Of a DNA stretch of 64,000 bases, positions 4,700 through 25,505 are shown piece by piece. Below the pieces are notes generated by a model. The model searched no databases and was not told the DNA's origin. It was given only the letters and a program-made list of their open reading frames with translations. The first letter of the stretch is position 1. Each line of letters starts with the position of its first letter. The DNA comes from Escherichia phage phiWec181. Location of the stretch: sequence record LC739534.1. The stretch is one strand, 5' to 3'. A program made the translations under genes and the position numbers.

Positions 4700-5080
4700 T
4701 CAGGCTCCTTTACGATTATGGAAACAATCTTTCACTCGCTCTTGCACCCACTCTACACGAAGCTTGTTTTCATGCGCTCTGTTGTGGTTATGCTCTTGCA
4801 CATAGTCTTCGTAGTTCACATTAAAGGGAACACTGACAGACAATCCTGCACAACGAAATTGTTTCTTCATTTCTTTTAATGTCGCATCACTTAGGGCACA
4901 AAGCTGATTTGCCTGTTCCTCACTGAAGTTACTGTCCCACATCTCATCCCAGATAAAACTATCCAAGCATACACATAACCCATGCCTTGTGCGCTCTTTA
5001 GTATGATGATCAGCAAGCCAACTTTCATAGAAAGCTAACAACACCGGACTACTCAACGGAACATTTTTACTCTCTTGCAT
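4700..5080 (-). CDS. hypothetical protein (126 aa), member of tandem 3-paralog family
   Basis: ATG at 5080 with AGAGGAG RBS (ORF-track start 5167 judged over-extended); conserved motif. Confidence 0.6.
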   Translation of the reverse strand: MQESKNVPLSSPVLLAFYESWLADHHTKERTRHGLCVCLDSFIWDEMWDSNFSEEQANQLCALSDATLKEMKKQFRCAGLSVSVPFNVNYEDYVQEHNHNRAHENKLRVEWVQERVKDCFHNRKGA

Positions 5081-5169
5081 GATAATCTCCTCTCTTGGTT
5101 TCATGACAAACATCCTAATTCTCAACGAGGAACATCTTACGATCAATCCTCGGCAATTACAATTCATTT

Positions 5170-6581
5170 ATCATCGCTTTTCCCTATCAATTATTCTATA
5201 TATACCTGTTATTTTTGACACCCCCTTTGGTCAAATATTAATCGGCAAAATATCTGGGGGTACTCTATAAAATGATGCCCCCTGTTCCTGCAATTTATCG
5301 AGGAGAATATCATTCGACTATCATCGGCAAAGAGACAGAAAAGCCTTTGGTAGCAAGGATTTATGGCGAGTACGTCAGGACTGCTTAACGCGAATTTTTC
5401 GGCCCCTCCACTTCTGCGAGCCGGAATCCTCAAATATCAATGAGAATAATTATCATTATCATTCGTATTCAATAACTTAGGCGATCTTTTCCCCTGCTAT
5501 AAGGTCGGGCCTAACTTAACCATCACTTTTCAAACAATCCTTTATCAATCAACTACTTAACAACCTAAACATATGATTACTACGGTGTAAAGGTGCCGCC
5601 CATAACAGACTACCTATAAAATAGATGAGAATGATTATTATTCAGACAATTCTTACAACAAATCGACCAACAAATCAAGAATTTTCTTATTTTTATTCAC
5701 GTTTAAGAGAACGTGCTCAACATTCCGCTACGCGTAACGGTTCGCCCCCAAAAGATTAGCCTTTGCTTTCCTGTATATTTATACACTATGTGCAAGGTGT
5801 CGCTACACGCTCGCCTTGCCCCGCATAATCCTTCACTGTGCTAATGATTTCATAGTGCAACAATAACACTTATTATTATATTACGCTTAATTATTCTTAC
5901 ATACAATGCTAATAATAAGCCAGCGTAATTAGTGTAAGCGTAATACGCTTGCAATAATTGCAAGCTACATAATCACAAGAAATAACTATCACCGATAGTT
6001 ATGATTGTGGGGGTGTAGTTGGCTTATTATTAGCTCGCTACGTGTCCGGCGTAGCGTGCTAATGATGAGGCTTGGAATGATTCATTTTGCAATTATTACA
6101 GTCTTCACTATTTTGATAATAGTTGTTCTTTTAATGGTTTCATTTGTTATCGTTAGTTAGTTGGTTGTTTTGTAGTGTTATCGTTATCTTGCTTAGTATT
6201 CATCACGGTTTGATTGTTTGTCGTTATCAATCATCTTTCTATTATTCCTTTGATTATGATTAGTTTGCTTATTGTTTTAGGTTGTTGGTTGGTTAGTTGT
6301 TGCGAACTATTATCAACATTATAGTTATGCACTTATATTGCATAGATACGCAAGGGTAGATGATAATGGTTATCATTGCACTGGAAAGGAAGAAAACAGC
6401 CTTTTTCGGTTGTTTGTTGTTGGTTGTTGATCTATTTTAACCGCTCTAAATAGCTCTCTAACAGCCTGTTTACCTGGGGTGTATGGTTATTCGTTTGCTG
6501 GTTGATTAGCTCGATACCGCGATTTATTCAGTTTTGTTCTGTGTCGGTTTTTCATAGGCGGAATCTATCAACATTGTTCGG
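5170..6581. other. 1.4 kb non-coding region rich in palindromes and G/T-skewed short repeats
   Basis: No credible ORF; perfect inverted repeats (ATAACTATCACCGATAGTTAT, TTGCAATAATTGCAA, AGCGTAAT/ATTACGCT) and GTTATCGTTA-type repeats on one strand. Confidence 0.6.
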
Positions 6582-6621
6582 GCAAAAAGAAAGGGCGCTT
6601 GGTGCGCCCCTTGTTTTGTTG
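6582..6621 (-). terminator. intrinsic terminator (GGGCGC-N5-GCGCCC hairpin with U-run)
   Basis: GC hairpin 6593-6609 followed on minus strand by TTTCTTTTT; lies just 3' of gene 6626-7045. Confidence 0.6.
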
Positions 6622-6625
6622 TCGA

Positions 6626-7045
6626 TTATAACGCTTCATAGATTGAGTAGATCCGGTTCGCCAGGTCATTACGAAAGCGGAATTTTTCATCACGTTTAAT
6701 CATCAGATCCTTAAAACCGCATTCTTTCAAGGCTTCATTAACTTTACTGCGGCATACTTTCATATTGTCCTGCGCGTCACCAATAAACTTATTGCTATGA
6801 TGCATTGCTTTGATCTCTTCCTCCAGGACCAGGGCAACTACACGGATCGGATCAAGCTGATACGCGGTAACATCCATGCGGCATTGTAAACGGCTTTTAA
6901 CATCGTTTACCGGATACACTGCAACCTCTTCCCCGTCAACGTTCACGATAACCAGTTTGCCATCAATTTCGAAGCCTTTAGCGGCGCTACCGTGACAAAA
7001 AGCGTTATCGAAGGAGTAAGCCGGATTATTTGATTTAATGTTCAT
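6626..7045 (-). CDS. hypothetical protein (139 aa)
   Basis: ATG at 7045; promoter upstream, terminator downstream. Confidence 0.6.
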   Translation of the reverse strand: MNIKSNNPAYSFDNAFCHGSAAKGFEIDGKLVIVNVDGEEVAVYPVNDVKSRLQCRMDVTAYQLDPIRVVALVLEEEIKAMHHSNKFIGDAQDNMKVCRSKVNEALKECGFKDLMIKRDEKFRFRNDLANRIYSIYEAL

Positions 7046-7087: not shown

Positions 7088-7122
7088 TTAAATATAATAT
7101 AACGCCGATCCCCTGTCAATAG
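7088..7122 (-). promoter_or_regulatory. sigma70-like promoter (TTGACA, ~18 nt spacer, TATATT) inside CCCCTATTGACAGGGG palindrome
   Basis: Hexamers read on minus strand upstream of gene 6626-7045. Confidence 0.45.
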
Positions 7123-8605: not shown

Positions 8606-8740
8606 TTAAAATAGTGTGCCGATGGAAGATAGCAGGTCACTAATAACCAGGACCAGATCTACTATCACATATCTAATCAGGAAGGGGATTAGCGCCAGCG
8701 TCGCTACTATGATCCCCATTGTCATGATTACCTTTCTCAT
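8606..8740 (-). CDS. small hydrophobic peptide (44 aa, predicted membrane)
   Basis: Below ORF-track cutoff; ATG overlaps upstream stop as ATGA; hydrophobic core IIVATLALIPFLI. Confidence 0.4.
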   Translation of the reverse strand: MRKVIMTMGIIVATLALIPFLIRYVIVDLVLVISDLLSSIGTLF

Positions 8741-9027
8741 TGTTGGCGGTTTACATAAGCTTTACCGTTTACGGTCATCGGTATGGCCTCAAGGTCTGGA
8801 TCTTCCTTAAGGTCGCGTGCAAGCTCACCGCACCGGACACCCTCGAATCCGTGGTATTCTGTTTCCCCGTTCTTAAAAGTTTTAGCGGCAAGGCATAGGC
8901 GATAATTAACACCGATCCGGTTTACTGCGTTGATATCGGTTAACGTGATCGATTCCGGCAAATCGTTAGCCATTACAGGCGCGTTAATACCAACAACCAG
9001 GGCAACTACTGCGATCATCTTTTTCAT
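8737..9027 (-). CDS. secreted/periplasmic protein (96 aa, N-terminal signal peptide)
   Basis: N-terminus MKKMIAVVALVVGINAPVMA is a typical Sec signal peptide. Confidence 0.6.
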   Translation of the reverse strand: MKKMIAVVALVVGINAPVMANDLPESITLTDINAVNRIGVNYRLCLAAKTFKNGETEYHGFEGVRCGELARDLKEDPDLEAIPMTVNGKAYVNRQQ

Positions 9028-10125: not shown

Positions 10126-10230
10126 TTAACCGATACCGTGGGAAGATAGGATCATATTAGCCATAGTTGCAACCACTCCAACCGATAACGCCAGGCCAAC
10201 TACTGCAACCGTGAAAATTTTCTCTAACAT
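10126..10230 (-). CDS. small hydrophobic peptide (34 aa)
   Basis: Below ORF-track cutoff; has its own cassette upstream (10233-10311); hydrophobic translation. Confidence 0.4.
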   Translation of the reverse strand: MLEKIFTVAVVGLALSVGVVATMANMILSSHGIG

Positions 10231-10232
10231 GA

Positions 10233-10311
10233 TGCTACCCTCATTAATGGGCGTTGCCTTATTGCCCCGCCCTACGTAATACAGTTTACCCGATTTATAA
10301 TTGTTGTCAAA
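10233..10311 (-). promoter_or_regulatory. promoter + 5'-UTR hairpin cassette (imperfect GGGCGGGGC variant)
   Basis: TTGACA, 17 nt, AAACTG, then GC hairpin, read on minus strand. Confidence 0.45.
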
Positions 10312-12410: not shown

Positions 12411-12530
12411 TTATAAGATGATTGATAAGATAGTGATAACGAAAGCGATAACACCAACGGCGATCGTAGTCTTACGCCCTTCGGATACTGCCGGATTCTC
12501 TACCGTGTATTCTACTGTGTATTTGTTCAT
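12411..12530 (-). CDS. small peptide with C-terminal transmembrane segment (39 aa)
   Basis: Below ORF-track cutoff; cassette upstream; hydrophobic C-terminus. Confidence 0.4.
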   Translation of the reverse strand: MNKYTVEYTVENPAVSEGRKTTIAVGVIAFVITILSIIL

Positions 12531-12944: not shown

Positions 12945-13015
12945 TGCCGCCCTACGTAATACACTTTACCTTATTTCTTCCAAAAAGCAAGTTTATTTGC
13001 AATTGGTGACAAATA
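12945..13015 (-). promoter_or_regulatory. promoter + 5'-UTR hairpin cassette (GCGGCACCATTGCCGC)
   Basis: -35 TTGCTT lies inside the last codons of upstream gene. Confidence 0.5.
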
Positions 13016-13171
13016 ACGTTTACCCGCGTAAAACAGTACAGCGACACTAACCACGGCGGCGATCTCATGCATAGCCGACGGGAAACGAGTATCATAATAA
13101 GATCCAATAATAGCAATAGCGGCAACGGCTGCAACGTCGATAATGATTTTTTCTTGTTTTGCGGTGATCAT
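12971..13171 (-). CDS. small membrane protein (66 aa)
   Basis: Two hydrophobic segments; ATG at 13171. Confidence 0.55.
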   Translation of the reverse strand: MITAKQEKIIIDVAAVAAIAIIGSYYDTRFPSAMHEIAAVVSVAVLFYAGKRYLSPIANKLAFWKK

Positions 13172-13503: not shown

Positions 13504-13650
13504 TTAGTCTTCCAGGTCCATCCATGCACGTTTCTCGGTGCGGTCGCGCTTAGTTTTGTTGCGCTTGTCGCCCTTGCGGATCACTTCTTCATTCCACGCT
13601 GCGCGTGTTTTAGAAGATTGGATTTTTTCGGCGCGATTAGATGTATTCAT
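13504..13650 (-). CDS. small basic protein (48 aa)
   Basis: Below ORF-track cutoff; ATG at 13650 with cassette upstream; K/R-rich. Confidence 0.4.
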   Translation of the reverse strand: MNTSNRAEKIQSSKTRAAWNEEVIRKGDKRNKTKRDRTEKRAWMDLED

Positions 13651-14776: not shown

Positions 14777-14944
14777 TTATTTTTTACGGCTTAAGGTGCC
14801 CAAGTTATCAGCGTGACGCAGACCAGGGAAGATCCAAGCGCCGGATTCATCTTTTACAGGTGCCTTAACACTTGCGCCCAGGTTGGCGGCGTTAACTTTA
14901 CGTGCTACGTTGCGAGCGGCTTCACGGGTAGTAAAAGTAATCAT
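14777..14944 (-). CDS. small basic protein (55 aa)
   Basis: Below ORF-track cutoff; ATG at 14944 with GAGAAGAGGAAAAC leader; cassette upstream. Confidence 0.45.
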   Translation of the reverse strand: MITFTTREAARNVARKVNAANLGASVKAPVKDESGAWIFPGLRHADNLGTLSRKK

Positions 14945-15016: not shown

Positions 15017-15175
15017 TTATTTCTTTGCAACTACTTTTATATTTTCTTTCTTTGCCTCTTCCACCTGGTCCGCCCACTGCTTACCCCACGTTTGAGCGTT
15101 ATAGTGATATTGACAAAGAGCAACACCACGTTTTAAACCAGCGATAGACTTTTTACCACATTGACAAGTTTTCAT
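15017..15175 (-). CDS. small Cys-containing protein (52 aa, possible zinc-binding)
   Basis: Below ORF-track cutoff; translation MKTCQCGKK...LCQYHY has spaced Cys/His. Confidence 0.4.
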   Translation of the reverse strand: MKTCQCGKKSIAGLKRGVALCQYHYNAQTWGKQWADQVEEAKKENIKVVAKK

Positions 15176-15795: not shown

Positions 15796-15889
15796 TTATT
15801 TTCTATTTCTTCCGTAATAGCCCAATTTATGATCTAAGCTAAAACGTTTTGTGAGATAGGTCGAACGATGTTTCATTTTTATGTCTCCT

Positions 15890-16129
15890 TTACATTCCAA
15901 CCATAGCGGCGCGGATCGCGGTAGTGCTATACTTGAAACCGTCTGGAGTTTTATCTTGTCCAGTCTGTTCCAGAAAGAGCATCATATCACGCGCCGCATC
16001 GTTACGGTTAGAATTATAACTAATAAATTCTTTCGCGGTGCGGTATAATGATTCATCGTTATTAATCCAAAGGCTTACATTCCAATGAGTTTTGTTTTTG
16101 TGACCTAAGAACATTTTTGATTTAGCCAT
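15890..16129 (-). CDS. hypothetical protein (79 aa)
   Basis: ATG at 16129; cassette upstream. Confidence 0.5.
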   Translation of the reverse strand: MAKSKMFLGHKNKTHWNVSLWINNDESLYRTAKEFISYNSNRNDAARDMMLFLEQTGQDKTPDGFKYSTTAIRAAMVGM

Positions 16130-16668: not shown

Positions 16669-16848
16669 TTAACGATAATCATCGTAGGCTTTATTAACCT
16701 GGCGAATATAACATTCGAAAGCGAGATCAATAGAATCATATTCCCGCACATAATCCCCGTAAGAAACTACATACACACCTTTTTGATCCTCAAACGTCAT
16801 GATGATAGAATCCAGGCCGATGATTTCAGTTTTAGCGATGATAGTCAT
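16669..16848 (-). CDS. hypothetical protein (59 aa)
   Basis: Below ORF-track cutoff; ATG at 16848; cassette upstream. Confidence 0.45.
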   Translation of the reverse strand: MTIIAKTEIIGLDSIIMTFEDQKGVYVVSYGDYVREYDSIDLAFECYIRQVNKAYDDYR

Positions 16849-17565: not shown

Positions 17566-17676
17566 TTACTTCAAAATGATTGTTGTGATAACTGCTACGG
17601 TGATCCAGAATGGAACAACTAAGATAATAGCGTTAATCGTTCCAACTGTCAAACTATTTTCTTTCTTGATCATCAT
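17566..17676 (-). CDS. small hydrophobic peptide (36 aa)
   Basis: ATG at 17676 with AAGGAAAAC RBS; hydrophobic translation; the 77-aa ORF-track call starts inside the cassette hairpin. Confidence 0.4.
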   Translation of the reverse strand: MMIKKENSLTVGTINAIILVVPFWITVAVITTIILK

Positions 17677-17683
17677 GTTTTCC

Positions 17684-17767
17684 TTACAGTGTCCAAAGAA
17701 TGATTTCAAGTGCAGCACGGAAACCAGGAATAAAATTGATTGCAAAAAACAGGGAAGTAGTAAACAT
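17684..17767 (-). CDS. small hydrophobic peptide (27 aa)
   Basis: ATG at 17767 directly downstream of cassette; hydrophobic. Confidence 0.3.
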   Translation of the reverse strand: MFTTSLFFAINFIPGFRAALEIILWTL

Positions 17768-17772
17768 TTTTC

Positions 17773-17841
17773 TATCCTTTCAGTTGTGAGCGGCACCATT
17801 GCCGCCTGATGAGTTAACTATAAGGGATCACGTTTTACCTG
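17773..17841 (-). promoter_or_regulatory. promoter + 5'-UTR hairpin cassette (GCGGCACCATTGCCGC)
   Basis: TTGACA -35 and hairpin. Confidence 0.5.
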
Positions 17842-18399
17842 TCAACCTAAATCATCAAAATAAAGATAATTTTTTTCGGCTTCTTTCTTCTCTTCCTGTG
17901 ATGCCTCAAAGACTGGGAGAAAGTGATCAAAGGCGACGCACTCAACCGCTTGATCGTCTTCCTCTTCCTGGTCTTCCTCCTGGGCTATGGCTGCAATTTT
18001 GGCTAATTTCCTTTCAGCCTGGATCAGCTTACCATCTAAAACGCTTTTAGCGGTGCTGTACGCCGTCCAAGTGATGCGCTTACTTTCCAGCGCGGCATCA
18101 AGCGCCGCTATCTTGCTGGGGTATTCATCCAGGACACGAAAAGCCGGATCTACCTTGTACAGCGGATTATCTTTCGCGCCGTCGCTATCATCTGCGGCGC
18201 TTGCAATGTCAGCGTTACCATTCGCCAGCCAACCAGGGCGATCGCTGCGTGTTTTGGTATTCCCATGACTACGCGCCGATCTGTTGCCTACTTGCTCGCC
18301 ACTATAGCCAGGAGCATGATCGATCATGTCGTCCGGTATAATGCGCGGATCATTAACGTCATGTTTTACCCAGGACTGGATCACATATTCGCGCCCCAT
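17842..18399 (-). CDS. hypothetical protein (185 aa) with acidic C-terminus
   Basis: ATG at 18399 with AAAGGGGTG RBS; no cassette of its own, so likely in operon with two genes upstream. Confidence 0.6.
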   Translation of the reverse strand: MGREYVIQSWVKHDVNDPRIIPDDMIDHAPGYSGEQVGNRSARSHGNTKTRSDRPGWLANGNADIASAADDSDGAKDNPLYKVDPAFRVLDEYPSKIAALDAALESKRITWTAYSTAKSVLDGKLIQAERKLAKIAAIAQEEDQEEEDDQAVECVAFDHFLPVFEASQEEKKEAEKNYLYFDDLG

Positions 18400-19802: not shown

Positions 19803-20029
19803 GTTTTACATACAGAAGAGGAAGCGCCACCCCACGGCGTAAAGGCGGGGCTAACATACCAGGGGCACTGGTTGGAAGGTCGATCGCCGGGAGGCTGGGC
19901 GCTATATATTTGTAAAGAAATGTAAAGATAAAATAATCGCTTGCTTTCCTGGCTGGATCTGTTATTCTTATTACATGGCGAGGGGACACGGGAGCGCGAG
20001 ACAATCACCGGACCTGCCCGTCATTCTGC

Positions 20030-20150
20030 AAATGAGAAAAATTCTCATTTGCAAATAAGACTCATTCGCATTTAATAATTGAATGAGAATCATTCTCATT
20101 CTCATTCGTATTTCGATTTTAAGTGAGAATAATTCTCATTTCGGTAATTT
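20030..20150. repeat. three palindromic TGAGAAT-N-ATTCTCA sites (operator-like)
   Basis: TGAGAAAAATTCTCA, ATGAGAATCATTCTCAT, GTGAGAATAATTCTCAT read directly. Confidence 0.6.
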
Positions 20151-20151
20151 T

Positions 20152-20354
20152 CACGTAAACTTTAGAATTTGCTTTTCAACTTTCACTTTTGTAAAAGCAA
20201 AAAAACTTTAAATACCTGGTGCGCGCGACTTTTTAAAAAATTTTTCTCGGTTTTTTGCTTTGAAATCTGGCCCACCAATTTGAGATAGTGTACGTAAACT
20301 TTAGAATTTGGTTTTGGATTCTCACTTTTGTAAACTCGTAAAAAGTTTAAATAA
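20152..20354. repeat. two ~60 bp direct repeats (ACGTAAACTTTAGAATTTG...TTTGTAAA...TTTAAATA), iteron-like
   Basis: Copies at ~20152-20214 and ~20291-20354, ~85% identical, AT-rich; TTGAGATA repeated three times nearby. Confidence 0.6.
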
Positions 20355-20481
20355 TTGTAGGGATTTTGAGATAGTTTGCTTGTAAGGTTTGAGATAATCC
20401 TTCCCGAAGATGTTACGCAGCCTACAGCCTACCTGAATGCTCGTCTAACGAGATTAACTCTAAAAGATGAGTGTTGGTGTA

Positions 20482-23924: not shown

Positions 23925-24284
23925 TTAGATCCCTTCGCCTTTAGTGATGATAGCTTCCATCACCACAGCTTTCTTCTTACGTTGAACATCTTGACGGATC
24001 AGGAGGCTACCACCTTGATCATCCTTATACTGCTTCATGATGATGAAGTTGTTGCCACACACAGCGCCGATAGCCACGTATGGGCGATTAGAATTATCCA
24101 CATCCGCAGATGGGGTTACATCCGTGCAAGTAAAGAACTTGCCATCAGGATCAGTATAAGCAAAGTGGCCTTTAGCAGTTACTGCAACTTCTCCGGTGCT
24201 TGTGGACTGTGCAGCCACAAACGGTGCAGCAGATGCTACGAAACTTGCAGACAGCAGGGCTACAGCTAAAATAATCTTTTTCAT
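23925..24284 (-). CDS. secreted protein (119 aa, signal peptide)
   Basis: N-terminus MKKIILAVALLSASFVASA. Confidence 0.6.
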   Translation of the reverse strand: MKKIILAVALLSASFVASAAPFVAAQSTSTGEVAVTAKGHFAYTDPDGKFFTCTDVTPSADVDNSNRPYVAIGAVCGNNFIIMKQYKDDQGGSLLIRQDVQRKKKAVVMEAIITKGEGI

Positions 24285-24296
24285 GGTGATCTCCTC

Positions 24297-24458
24297 TTAT
24301 TCCAACAACATACACAATGCAGCTACAACCAAGAACAGAGTAGCCACGCTTAAAGCGATAAACATTCCTAATTGAGAATGAAATTCGCCTATGATAGGTG
24401 CAGACAACGCACTTAGCAAACAACCTGTCAAACTTGCTTTGATAATAAGATCTAACAT
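24297..24458 (-). CDS. small membrane protein (53 aa)
   Basis: Below ORF-track cutoff; GGAGGTAAT RBS then ATG; two hydrophobic segments. Confidence 0.45.
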   Translation of the reverse strand: MLDLIIKASLTGCLLSALSAPIIGEFHSQLGMFIALSVATLFLVVAALCMLLE

Positions 24459-25319: not shown

Positions 25320-25505
25320 TTAACCAATTAGTTGGACTGCCTTGCAGATGTAAATCCAAACAGGACTAAGCATAAGTGCTACAATACTGGGGTAAATCCC
25401 TTTTGGCTCTATCTCAATTATTGATAAGATTAAGGTGACAGCACTGATAAACATATAAGCTCCCAAGAAAGCCAGCGTCAAGAATTCAGACATAATTAGC
25501 TCCAC
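25320..25505 (-). CDS. small membrane protein (61 aa)
   Basis: Two hydrophobic helices in translation. Confidence 0.5.
   Translation of the reverse strand: MELIMSEFLTLAFLGAYMFISAVTLILSIIEIEPKGIYPSIVALMLSPVWIYICKAVQLIG

Follow-up and report, generated by a model that had tools for sequence, protein, structure and literature searches.

Small hydrophobic peptide genes in the promoter-dense minus-strand array of Escherichia phage phiWec181

Small hydrophobic early proteins are expected in large virulent phages, and the described systems closest to the peptides analysed here are found in phage T4 and in bacteria. Imm, a small inner-membrane protein, and Sp, a small periplasmic protein, are likewise small, early and envelope-located products of a large virulent coliphage, T4. 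The bacterial small membrane regulators MgrB, AcrZ, MgtS and SgrT are also 30-50 aa long, have one span and bind a larger membrane protein; they carry a short functional motif, with a span that otherwise tolerates change. Small membrane proteins usually work by binding larger membrane complexes. The type I toxins TisB, Hok, Ldr, Ibs and ShoB are alike in length and hydrophobicity.

The peptides of phiWec181 resemble each of these systems in part. The combination of Imm and Sp may be likened to two gene pairs, 8606 with 8737-9027 and 24297 with 23925-24284, but there is no sequence similarity (no Pfam match for the peptides or for their secreted partners), Imm is twice the size of the peptides here, and in T4 the imm and sp genes do not lie next to each other. 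The short motif and tolerant span of the bacterial regulators match the conservation pattern of the phage peptides, although the regulators are host-encoded and show no homology to them. Compared with the type I toxins, the phage peptides have no family match and no evident antisense RNA partner, carry polar conserved motifs outside the span, and are phage-encoded behind a constitutive promoter cassette. PHROG 16005, 14631, 10979 and 27459, which match four of the peptides, are four separate groups, none with known function. Membership of the Imm/Sp or small-regulator families was not found by sequence, and both likenesses serve here as working analogies only.

Gene callers routinely miss small membrane proteins, and four of the six ORFs considered below are absent from the annotation of this genome. 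Phapecoctaviruses and their relatives are widely used therapeutic and biocontrol phages, with early arrays of about 100 genes without assigned functions. The present analysis changes no concept; it provides corrected gene models, a widely conserved 34-mer with a C-terminal motif, and two candidate modules in which a peptide is paired with a putative secreted protein.

The small-gene array and its hydrophobic ORFs

The window analysed here, a stretch of 64,000 nucleotides of phiWec181 (LC739534.1), is 100% identical to phiWec186 (LC739535.1; Phapecoctavirus, Stephanstirmvirinae) and spans the ends of that linear record. Positions 1-26,300 hold about 60 small genes arrayed on the minus strand. 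Sigma-70-like promoter matches, almost all of them on the minus strand, number 73 in this array compared with 42.9 +/- 7.1 in shuffles, and about 20 of the promoters share one recurring cassette layout: an A-rich tract, TTGACA, 16-17 nt, TAAGAT or TAAACT, a stem-loop (GGGCGGCAATGGTGCCGC), a Shine-Dalgarno (SD) sequence of the AGAAGAGAGA type and ATG. Folding of the stem-loop gave -14.4 kcal/mol (z = -2.9). The promoter consensus suggests early expression of the array. No Rfam family scored within the window. Six tiny hydrophobic ORFs lie in this array, surrounded by small genes that are all without known function:

8606..8740, minus strand: p8606, 44-aa hydrophobic peptide (MRKVIMTMGIIVATLALIPFLIRYVIVDLVLVISDLLSSIGTLF), without SD, ATGA overlap with the upstream stop; PHROG 16005
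10126..10230, minus strand: p10126, 34-aa single-span peptide (MLEKIFTVAVVGLALSVGVVATMANMILSSHGIG), first cistron of its cassette; PHROG 14631
10231..10310, minus strand: promoter TTGACA-N16-TAAACT with a 5'-UTR hairpin variant (-16.8 kcal/mol, z = -2.9) and SD, driving p10126
12411..12530, minus strand: p12411 (BDU12845.1), 39 aa, polar N-terminal 20-mer followed by a C-terminal membrane span (tail-anchor layout); PHROG 10979, 'membrane protein'
17566..17673, minus strand: p17566, 35-aa single-span peptide (MIKKENSLTVGTINAIILVVPFWITVAVITTIILK), starting at the second ATG, at 17673; no PHROG match
17684..17767, minus strand: p17684, 27-aa hydrophobic ORF, doubtful gene, first ORF behind a promoter at 17845; SD AAAGGA
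24297..24458, minus strand: p24297 (BDU12873.1), 53 aa, two hydrophobic spans joined by a loop P-x-x-G-E-[FY]-x-S, SD AGGAGG; PHROG 27459

The earlier note had described these ORFs as a family of unannotated hydrophobic peptide genes with full gene context. All six were recovered on the minus strand with the coordinates and lengths given there, except that the gene start of 17566-17676 shifts to 17673, leaving 35 aa. Their hydrophobic character was borne out by GRAVY values of 0.77-1.78. The best 19-residue Kyte-Doolittle window reaches 2.3-2.8 in five ORFs and 1.7 in 17684; by this crude measure, the ORFs have the hydrophobic helix, some 19 residues or longer, that marks an integral membrane peptide. 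Translation start signals consist of the SDs GAGGG (10126), GAGAGGA (12411), AAGGA (17566), AAAGGA (17684) and AGGAGG (24297), and the start of 8606 overlaps the stop of the upstream gene, in keeping with the ATGA coupling that had been proposed. The cassettes attributed to 10126 and 12411 were also confirmed: these two ORFs and 17684 are each the first ORF behind a sigma-70-like promoter with a 5'-UTR hairpin, which is degenerate in the 12411 cassette. The next gene begins 9-15 nt beyond each of the three, and the genes downstream of the tiny ORFs have SDs of their own.

The set was compared with its background. Fifty ATG ORFs of 25-59 aa are found on the minus strand of window 1-26300, and five of them have a GRAVY of at least 1.3, namely four of the listed tiny ORFs and an annotated 57-aa gene. 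On the plus strand, no small ORF in the 37.8 kb beyond 26,200 has a window of comparable hydrophobicity. Because the strongly hydrophobic small ORFs on the coding strand are only the listed ORFs and annotated genes, the six-ORF set is more than chance. Small membrane-type proteins beyond the six, both annotated, are:

25320..25493, minus strand: small membrane protein with two hydrophobic spans, 57 aa when counted from the ATG, part of the source annotation; PHROG 22639
12971..13171, minus strand: 66-aa membrane-type protein, first ORF of its own promoter-hairpin cassette, dN/dS 0.11-0.20; PHROG 30003

The six ORFs do not form a family. Four of them match a different PHROG each, 17566 and 17684 match none, and all-versus-all blastp in an 11-sequence database found no pair of window peptides better than E = 0.085, with short hydrophobic runs only. 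The PHROG profile matches, at E = 2.8e-20 (16005, 8606), 8.5e-22 (14631, 10126), 9.2e-20 (10979, 12411) and 1.1e-11 (27459, 24297), span the entire profile or leave out just its first two positions, and the profile lengths of 44, 34, 39 and 54 compare with ORFs of 44, 34, 39 and 53 aa; with such full-length matches, these four are already recognised in other genomes. The description as unannotated holds in the source record for 8606, 10126, 17566 and 17684, an omission that we ascribe to gene-caller length cut-offs, but not for 12411 and 24297, which are annotated there. Five of the six have an annotation in one relative or more. Some relatives annotate the orthologues of 8606, 10126 and 17566, as gp136, gp142 and gp162 in ESCO13 and as gp142, gp148 and gp163 in Schickermooser, with further annotated 10126 orthologues being EdH4_00006 and Murica gp121, whereas many related records omit them. 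Public protein collections contain sequences identical to the 34-, 39-, 35- and 53-aa peptides. Five of the peptide genes are uncharacterised examples of a well-known kind of gene, most of them catalogued already as hypothetical proteins in related phages.

Conservation and gene starts

The comparison of the ORFs drew on 12 loci, taken from genomes of Phapecoctavirus and Justusliebigvirus and from contigs of IMG/VR, together with three Vequintavirinae loci. Five ORFs (8606, 10126, 12411, 17566 and 24297) are intact in 6-9 diverged nucleotide variants each, despite 5-64 nucleotide differences. Stops occur in the alternative frames in at least five of each ORF's six to nine variants and never in the coding frame. 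For 8606, 12411, 17566 and 24297, the frame is kept and dN/dS among diverged orthologues is below 1, at 0.07-0.38 with an excess of changes at third codon positions (Fisher p <= 0.006, synonymous versus non-synonymous); for 10126, coding is indicated by codon-position bias and by a length fixed across subfamilies. The SD or coupling context of these five ORFs is conserved in relatives.

These comparisons show that five of the six ORFs are real, conserved genes under purifying selection at the protein level. The alternative that the ORFs are untranslated frames left open by chance in intergenic or regulatory DNA would account for the absence of four of them from the source annotation and for their omission from many related records. 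For the five, it is opposed by frame and length kept through all these nucleotide differences with dN/dS well below 1, by the stops in other frames, the conserved start signals and the full-length PHROG matches, and we regard it as extremely improbable. The proposal of genuine small genes with full context therefore stands for five ORFs and is doubtful for 17684, which has only an SD and an open frame in its favour; likewise, purifying selection supports for the five the earlier picture of membrane-type peptide genes in a promoter-dense array resembling an early region. Phage records with a match number 64 for 8606 (tblastn), 197 for 10126 (DNA search), 60 for 12411, 107 for 17566, 70 for 24297 and 5 for 17684, and by this distribution the tiny peptides are clade-restricted orphans.

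p8606 is exactly 44 aa long in 9 of 9 nucleotide variants, which share 57-100% amino-acid identity, with a dN/dS of 0.20-0.38 in diverged pairs (Fisher p = 2.7e-5) and 1-10 stops in the other frames. M1 is the sole start common to all variants, M6 and M8 being missing in some, which supports translational coupling to the upstream gene. The internal starts M6 and M8 annotated in ZCKP1 and ESCO13 were rejected as a general start, since an internal Met is absent from some variants. VSDL is an invariant motif of the peptide. A profile of p8606 found three matches among 1.84 billion representatives, each of 44 aa, and a word-indexed protein search returned close relatives only. The AlphaFold2 model is a single long helix (residues 2-43, pLDDT 92) and is uninformative for function.

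The most widespread of the peptides, p10126, occurs in two subfamilies, its carriers including the Vequintavirinae EdH4, Murica (gp121) and UPEC06 as well as phi92 and phAPEC8. Its SD (GAGGG), ATG and 34-aa length are kept in all relatives. The near relatives are too conserved for a pairwise test, with 3/1/9 variable nucleotide columns by codon position; against UPEC06 and Murica, both exactly 34 aa, the differences are 7/4/14 and 17/5/15. A C-terminal motif, ATM[AS]NMILS[SF][HN]GIG, is near-invariant across the two subfamilies, with a variable N-terminal half. The gene retains 94-99% nucleotide identity versus 88-90% in the downstream gene, and it is better conserved than its promoter and UTR (78-100%, below 88% in 7 of 10 relatives). 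NCBI lists the exact sequence under the label hypothetical protein (for instance YP_010356308.1), and about half of the sampled related records, including phAPEC8 and phi92, have no feature over the 34-mer. No copy was found in 5,426 complete E. coli genomes. Longer gene models of 52 aa (Schickermooser) and 63 aa (ESCO13) were rejected as artefacts, because their extra N-terminal residues are a translation of the promoter and hairpin, and the SD and ATG of the 34-mer are universal.

p12411 is 39 aa long in all variants (dN/dS 0.24-0.36; Fisher p = 0.006). Its N-terminal motif, V-[EQ]-Y-[TS]-V-x-N-P-A-x-x-E-G-[RK]-K, is kept in a 45%-identical Justusliebigvirus orthologue, and the span drifts. 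Orthologues of p24297 have 53-54 aa at 47-49% identity, with a dN/dS of 0.20-0.31 (Fisher p = 9e-5); the conserved parts are the loop and a C-terminal CML[LW]E. Two allele groups are apparent, with 65 of the 70 records under 60% identity and 4 reaching at least 95%. A word-indexed protein search with p24297 returned its own cluster only.

The region of 17566 and 17684 required correction. The first ATG of 17566-17676 is replaced by ATC, ACG, ACA or GCA in relatives, and this lack of conservation places the start of p17566 at 17673. The peptide has 31-35 aa in its variants, with a conserved N-terminal half and a C-terminus of variable length (dN/dS 0.07-0.15; Fisher p = 1e-7). The annotations of ESCO13 (gp162) and Schickermooser (gp163) give it as a CDS of 31 aa, and in these two phages and BI-EHEC it is the sole ORF from the promoter-hairpin-SD unit to the next promoter. 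A 77-aa ORF at 17566-17799 was rejected, its ATG falling in the cassette hairpin loop. p17684 is situated within an insertion of about 90 nt, sited between the cassette SD and the start of p17566; most relatives are without this insertion, and the cassette there drives p17566 directly.

The arrangement of the cassettes bears on another explanation, namely that the tiny ORFs are leaders whose translation serves only to regulate or permit translation of the next cistron, through coupling or the opening of mRNA structure, with a functionless peptide. The first position of 10126, 12411 and 17684 after a promoter, the close spacing of the next gene, the coupling of 8606 and the insertion of 17684 ahead of p17566 all fit such a role. 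It is countered by selection acting on the amino acids while synonymous changes accumulate, by peptide length fixed across subfamilies, and by the downstream genes' own SDs. The p10126 sequence is kept while its downstream neighbour varies, with another gene lying in between in Schickermooser, and p17566 stands alone in its cassette in several phages. For the five conserved genes, a pure leader function is very unlikely. p17684 is a lineage-specific open frame that may be translated, given its SD. It is short and confined to five records with at least 99% identity, in which the single difference seen is non-synonymous (F2S), and it has no PHROG, Pfam or NCBIfam match, as would also suit a chance frame. 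Among the leader-ORF cases, 17684-17767 is the one for which this reading is most plausible; it may be a leader or a chance frame.

Pairing of two peptides with putative secreted proteins

Two of the peptide genes are accompanied by a gene for a protein with a signal-peptide-like N-terminus:

8737..9027, minus strand: sec96, 96-aa protein whose N-terminal segment resembles a signal peptide (MKKMIAVVALVVGINAPVMA/ND), putative as read from the sequence; PHROG 9845
23925..24284, minus strand: sec119, 119-aa protein with a signal-peptide-like N-terminus (MKKIILAVALLSASFVASA/AP), likewise putative; PHROG 5474

In all 11 loci that have p8606, the gene for sec96 lies immediately upstream of it. The sec96 gene is also present without p8606 in rV5-like contigs, so the pairing is not obligatory. 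The AlphaFold2 model of sec96 has low pLDDT in the N-terminal 21 residues and a body of beta-beta-beta-alpha-beta order with a pLDDT of about 90. An IMG/VR scan using sec96 found 3 loci only. A frameshift fusion of sec96 and p8606 was considered and is unsupported, the conserved -1 frame relation following from a single CAA/TAA change.

The gene for sec119 is directly downstream of p24297 in 8 of 8 loci having p24297. The two have diverged together, to 47% (p24297) and 38% (sec119) identity, and a flanking 83-aa gene is still 83-95% identical. This co-divergence could reflect mere replacement of a two-gene block by recombination. We regard 8606 with 8737-9027 and 24297 with 23925-24284 as candidate two-gene envelope modules.

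Possible roles at the envelope

Searches for function gave no direct lead. No Pfam or NCBIfam model matched the peptides with E below 0.01, the listed matches all being under curated cut-offs, and homology to any characterised protein was not found in these collections. The Pfam, NCBIfam and PHROG annotations of the peptides and their neighbours offered no functional lead, and no structural match was obtained. Helical periodicity of conservation, as a mark of an interaction face, was not significant. A literature search found no transcriptome, ribosome-profiling, proteomic or functional study of these genes or of this phage group.

We consider it rather likely that the early array supplies five unrelated small membrane peptides (31-54 aa) that insert in the inner membrane and act by sequence-specific contacts with envelope proteins. 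The five genes would be transcribed by host RNA polymerase soon after infection, and their hydrophobic products would insert into the E. coli inner membrane, where they would contact particular envelope proteins in a sequence-specific manner and without general membrane damage. Such specificity is suggested because conservation sits in short motifs while the remaining span drifts: ATMxNMILSSxGIG in the 34-mer, the polar 20-mer of the 39-mer, VSDL in the 44-mer, and the loop and C-terminus of the 53-mer. The fixed modules of peptide and secreted protein, the second diverging far faster than its flanks, point to envelope-directed roles, which may include superinfection exclusion, remodelling of receptors or the envelope, or the blocking of an envelope-located defence. 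The earlier suggestion that the peptides inhibit transporters, the divisome or envelope defences may be kept as a reasonable analogy.

The peptides might instead be generic membrane-damaging agents of the type I toxin or viroporin kind, which oligomerise, dissipate the proton motive force and shut down the host without a specific partner. They are of the size and hydrophobicity of TisB, Hok, Ldr and Ibs-type peptides, an invariant acidic residue within the hydrophobic helix of p8606 (D35) could line a pore, and host shut-off would fit early timing. On the other hand, no toxin family of Pfam or NCBIfam matched, including the curated models of Hok/Gef, Ldr, Ibs, TisB, ShoB and Fst, and polar parts outside the membrane are conserved, as in the first 20 residues of p12411 and in the SSHGIG tail with which p10126 ends. 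An early collapse of membrane potential would presumably hurt a large phage that needs host energy through a long cycle, and five different peptides for one generic job would be redundant. We judge this explanation unlikely.

Control of lysis timing by holin, antiholin or pinholin-like components is highly improbable. One or two spans in a very small protein is a holin layout, and p24297 has two spans and charged ends. The genes lie, however, in a promoter-dense array of small genes with no adjoining endolysin or spanin, and all of their neighbours are without known function. There is no Pfam or PHROG holin match, the PHROG labels being 'unknown function' or 'membrane protein', and the sigma-70 consensus promoters suggest early over late expression. 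Toxin, leader, lysis and chance explanations are each less likely for the five genes than the specific envelope contacts proposed above.

A more far-reaching version of the envelope-contact proposal would make the 34-mer a core early factor in phages like rV5 and phi92, with a C-terminal motif that docks on a conserved inner-membrane machine of the Enterobacteria, and would make the two modules of peptide and secreted protein undescribed envelope-acting exclusion or anti-defence systems, the 24297 pair being engaged in an arms race. Taken as a whole, this extended scenario is speculative and rather doubtful.

Hydrophobic peptides make up about half of the very small genes of the array, not all. 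Hydrophilic genes of less than 60 aa, already annotated, are present at 13504-13650, 14777-14944, 15017-15175 and 16669-16848.

The promoter-hairpin cassette of the putative early array

A conserved cassette, presumably early, recurs about 20 times on the minus strand between positions 7,100 and 19,100 of the window; examples are as follows.

14179-14095, minus strand, promoter-hairpin cassette
15480-15400, minus strand, promoter-hairpin cassette
17265-17183, minus strand, promoter-hairpin cassette

In the cassette, an A-rich tract leads into TTGACA, a spacer of 16-17 nucleotides, TAAGAT or TAAACT, the stem-loop GGGCGGCAATGGTGCCGC and, 3' of the stem-loop, a Shine-Dalgarno (SD) sequence of the AGAAGAGAGA type. 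The stem-loop lies near the predicted 5' end of the transcript and has a folding energy of -14.4 kcal/mol (z = -2.9). Nowhere in the window was there a match to an Rfam family. The hairpin could serve as a stabilizer of the mRNA 5' end or as a regulator-binding site.

Within the same array, a 26-aa basic ORF (MKHRSTYLTKRFSLDHKLGYYGRNRK; 15,796-15,876, minus strand) is absent from the annotation. It is preceded by an AAAGGAG SD and flanked by the gene at 15890-16129 and the next promoter.

A divergent two-gene block

The genes for a 53-aa membrane peptide and a 119-aa putative secreted protein form a block at 23,925-24,458. In a comparison of the window with loci L002, L006-L009, L011 and L012, the block shares 38-49% identity with its counterpart in most Phapecoctaviruses, whereas the flanking genes share 83-95%. 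Judged from this difference in sequence identity, the block is a hypervariable or allelic module.

Stretches with few or no annotated genes

In a non-coding stretch at 19,960-20,400, a palindrome of the type AATGAGAATnATTCTCATT occurs several times on the plus strand, for example:

20081-20108, plus strand, palindrome copy
20030-20053, plus strand, palindrome copy
20123-20146, plus strand, palindrome copy

The palindromes, which resemble operators, iterons or Fur boxes in shape, are followed by two direct repeats, aaactttagaatttg...cacttttgtaaa. The stretch is located within a gap at 19.3-20.6 kb, where the sole annotated CDS is one on the plus strand, and may represent an origin or a regulatory region.

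Separately, the source record has no annotated CDS in the 1.5 kb of 5,080-6,626, where neither tRNAs (ARAGORN) nor Rfam matches were found.

Observations on p17566

A promoter-like site of near-consensus form (TTGACA-N17-TATTAT; 17,624-17,652, minus strand) lies within the coding sequence of p17566, a 35-aa single-span peptide gene; the relatives' version reads TTGACG-N17-TATCAT. The site may drive the 93-aa gene downstream or may be a coincidence. The 90%-identity protein cluster of p17566 also contains an unrelated 740-aa ENA protein (P0016), which looks like a clustering artefact.
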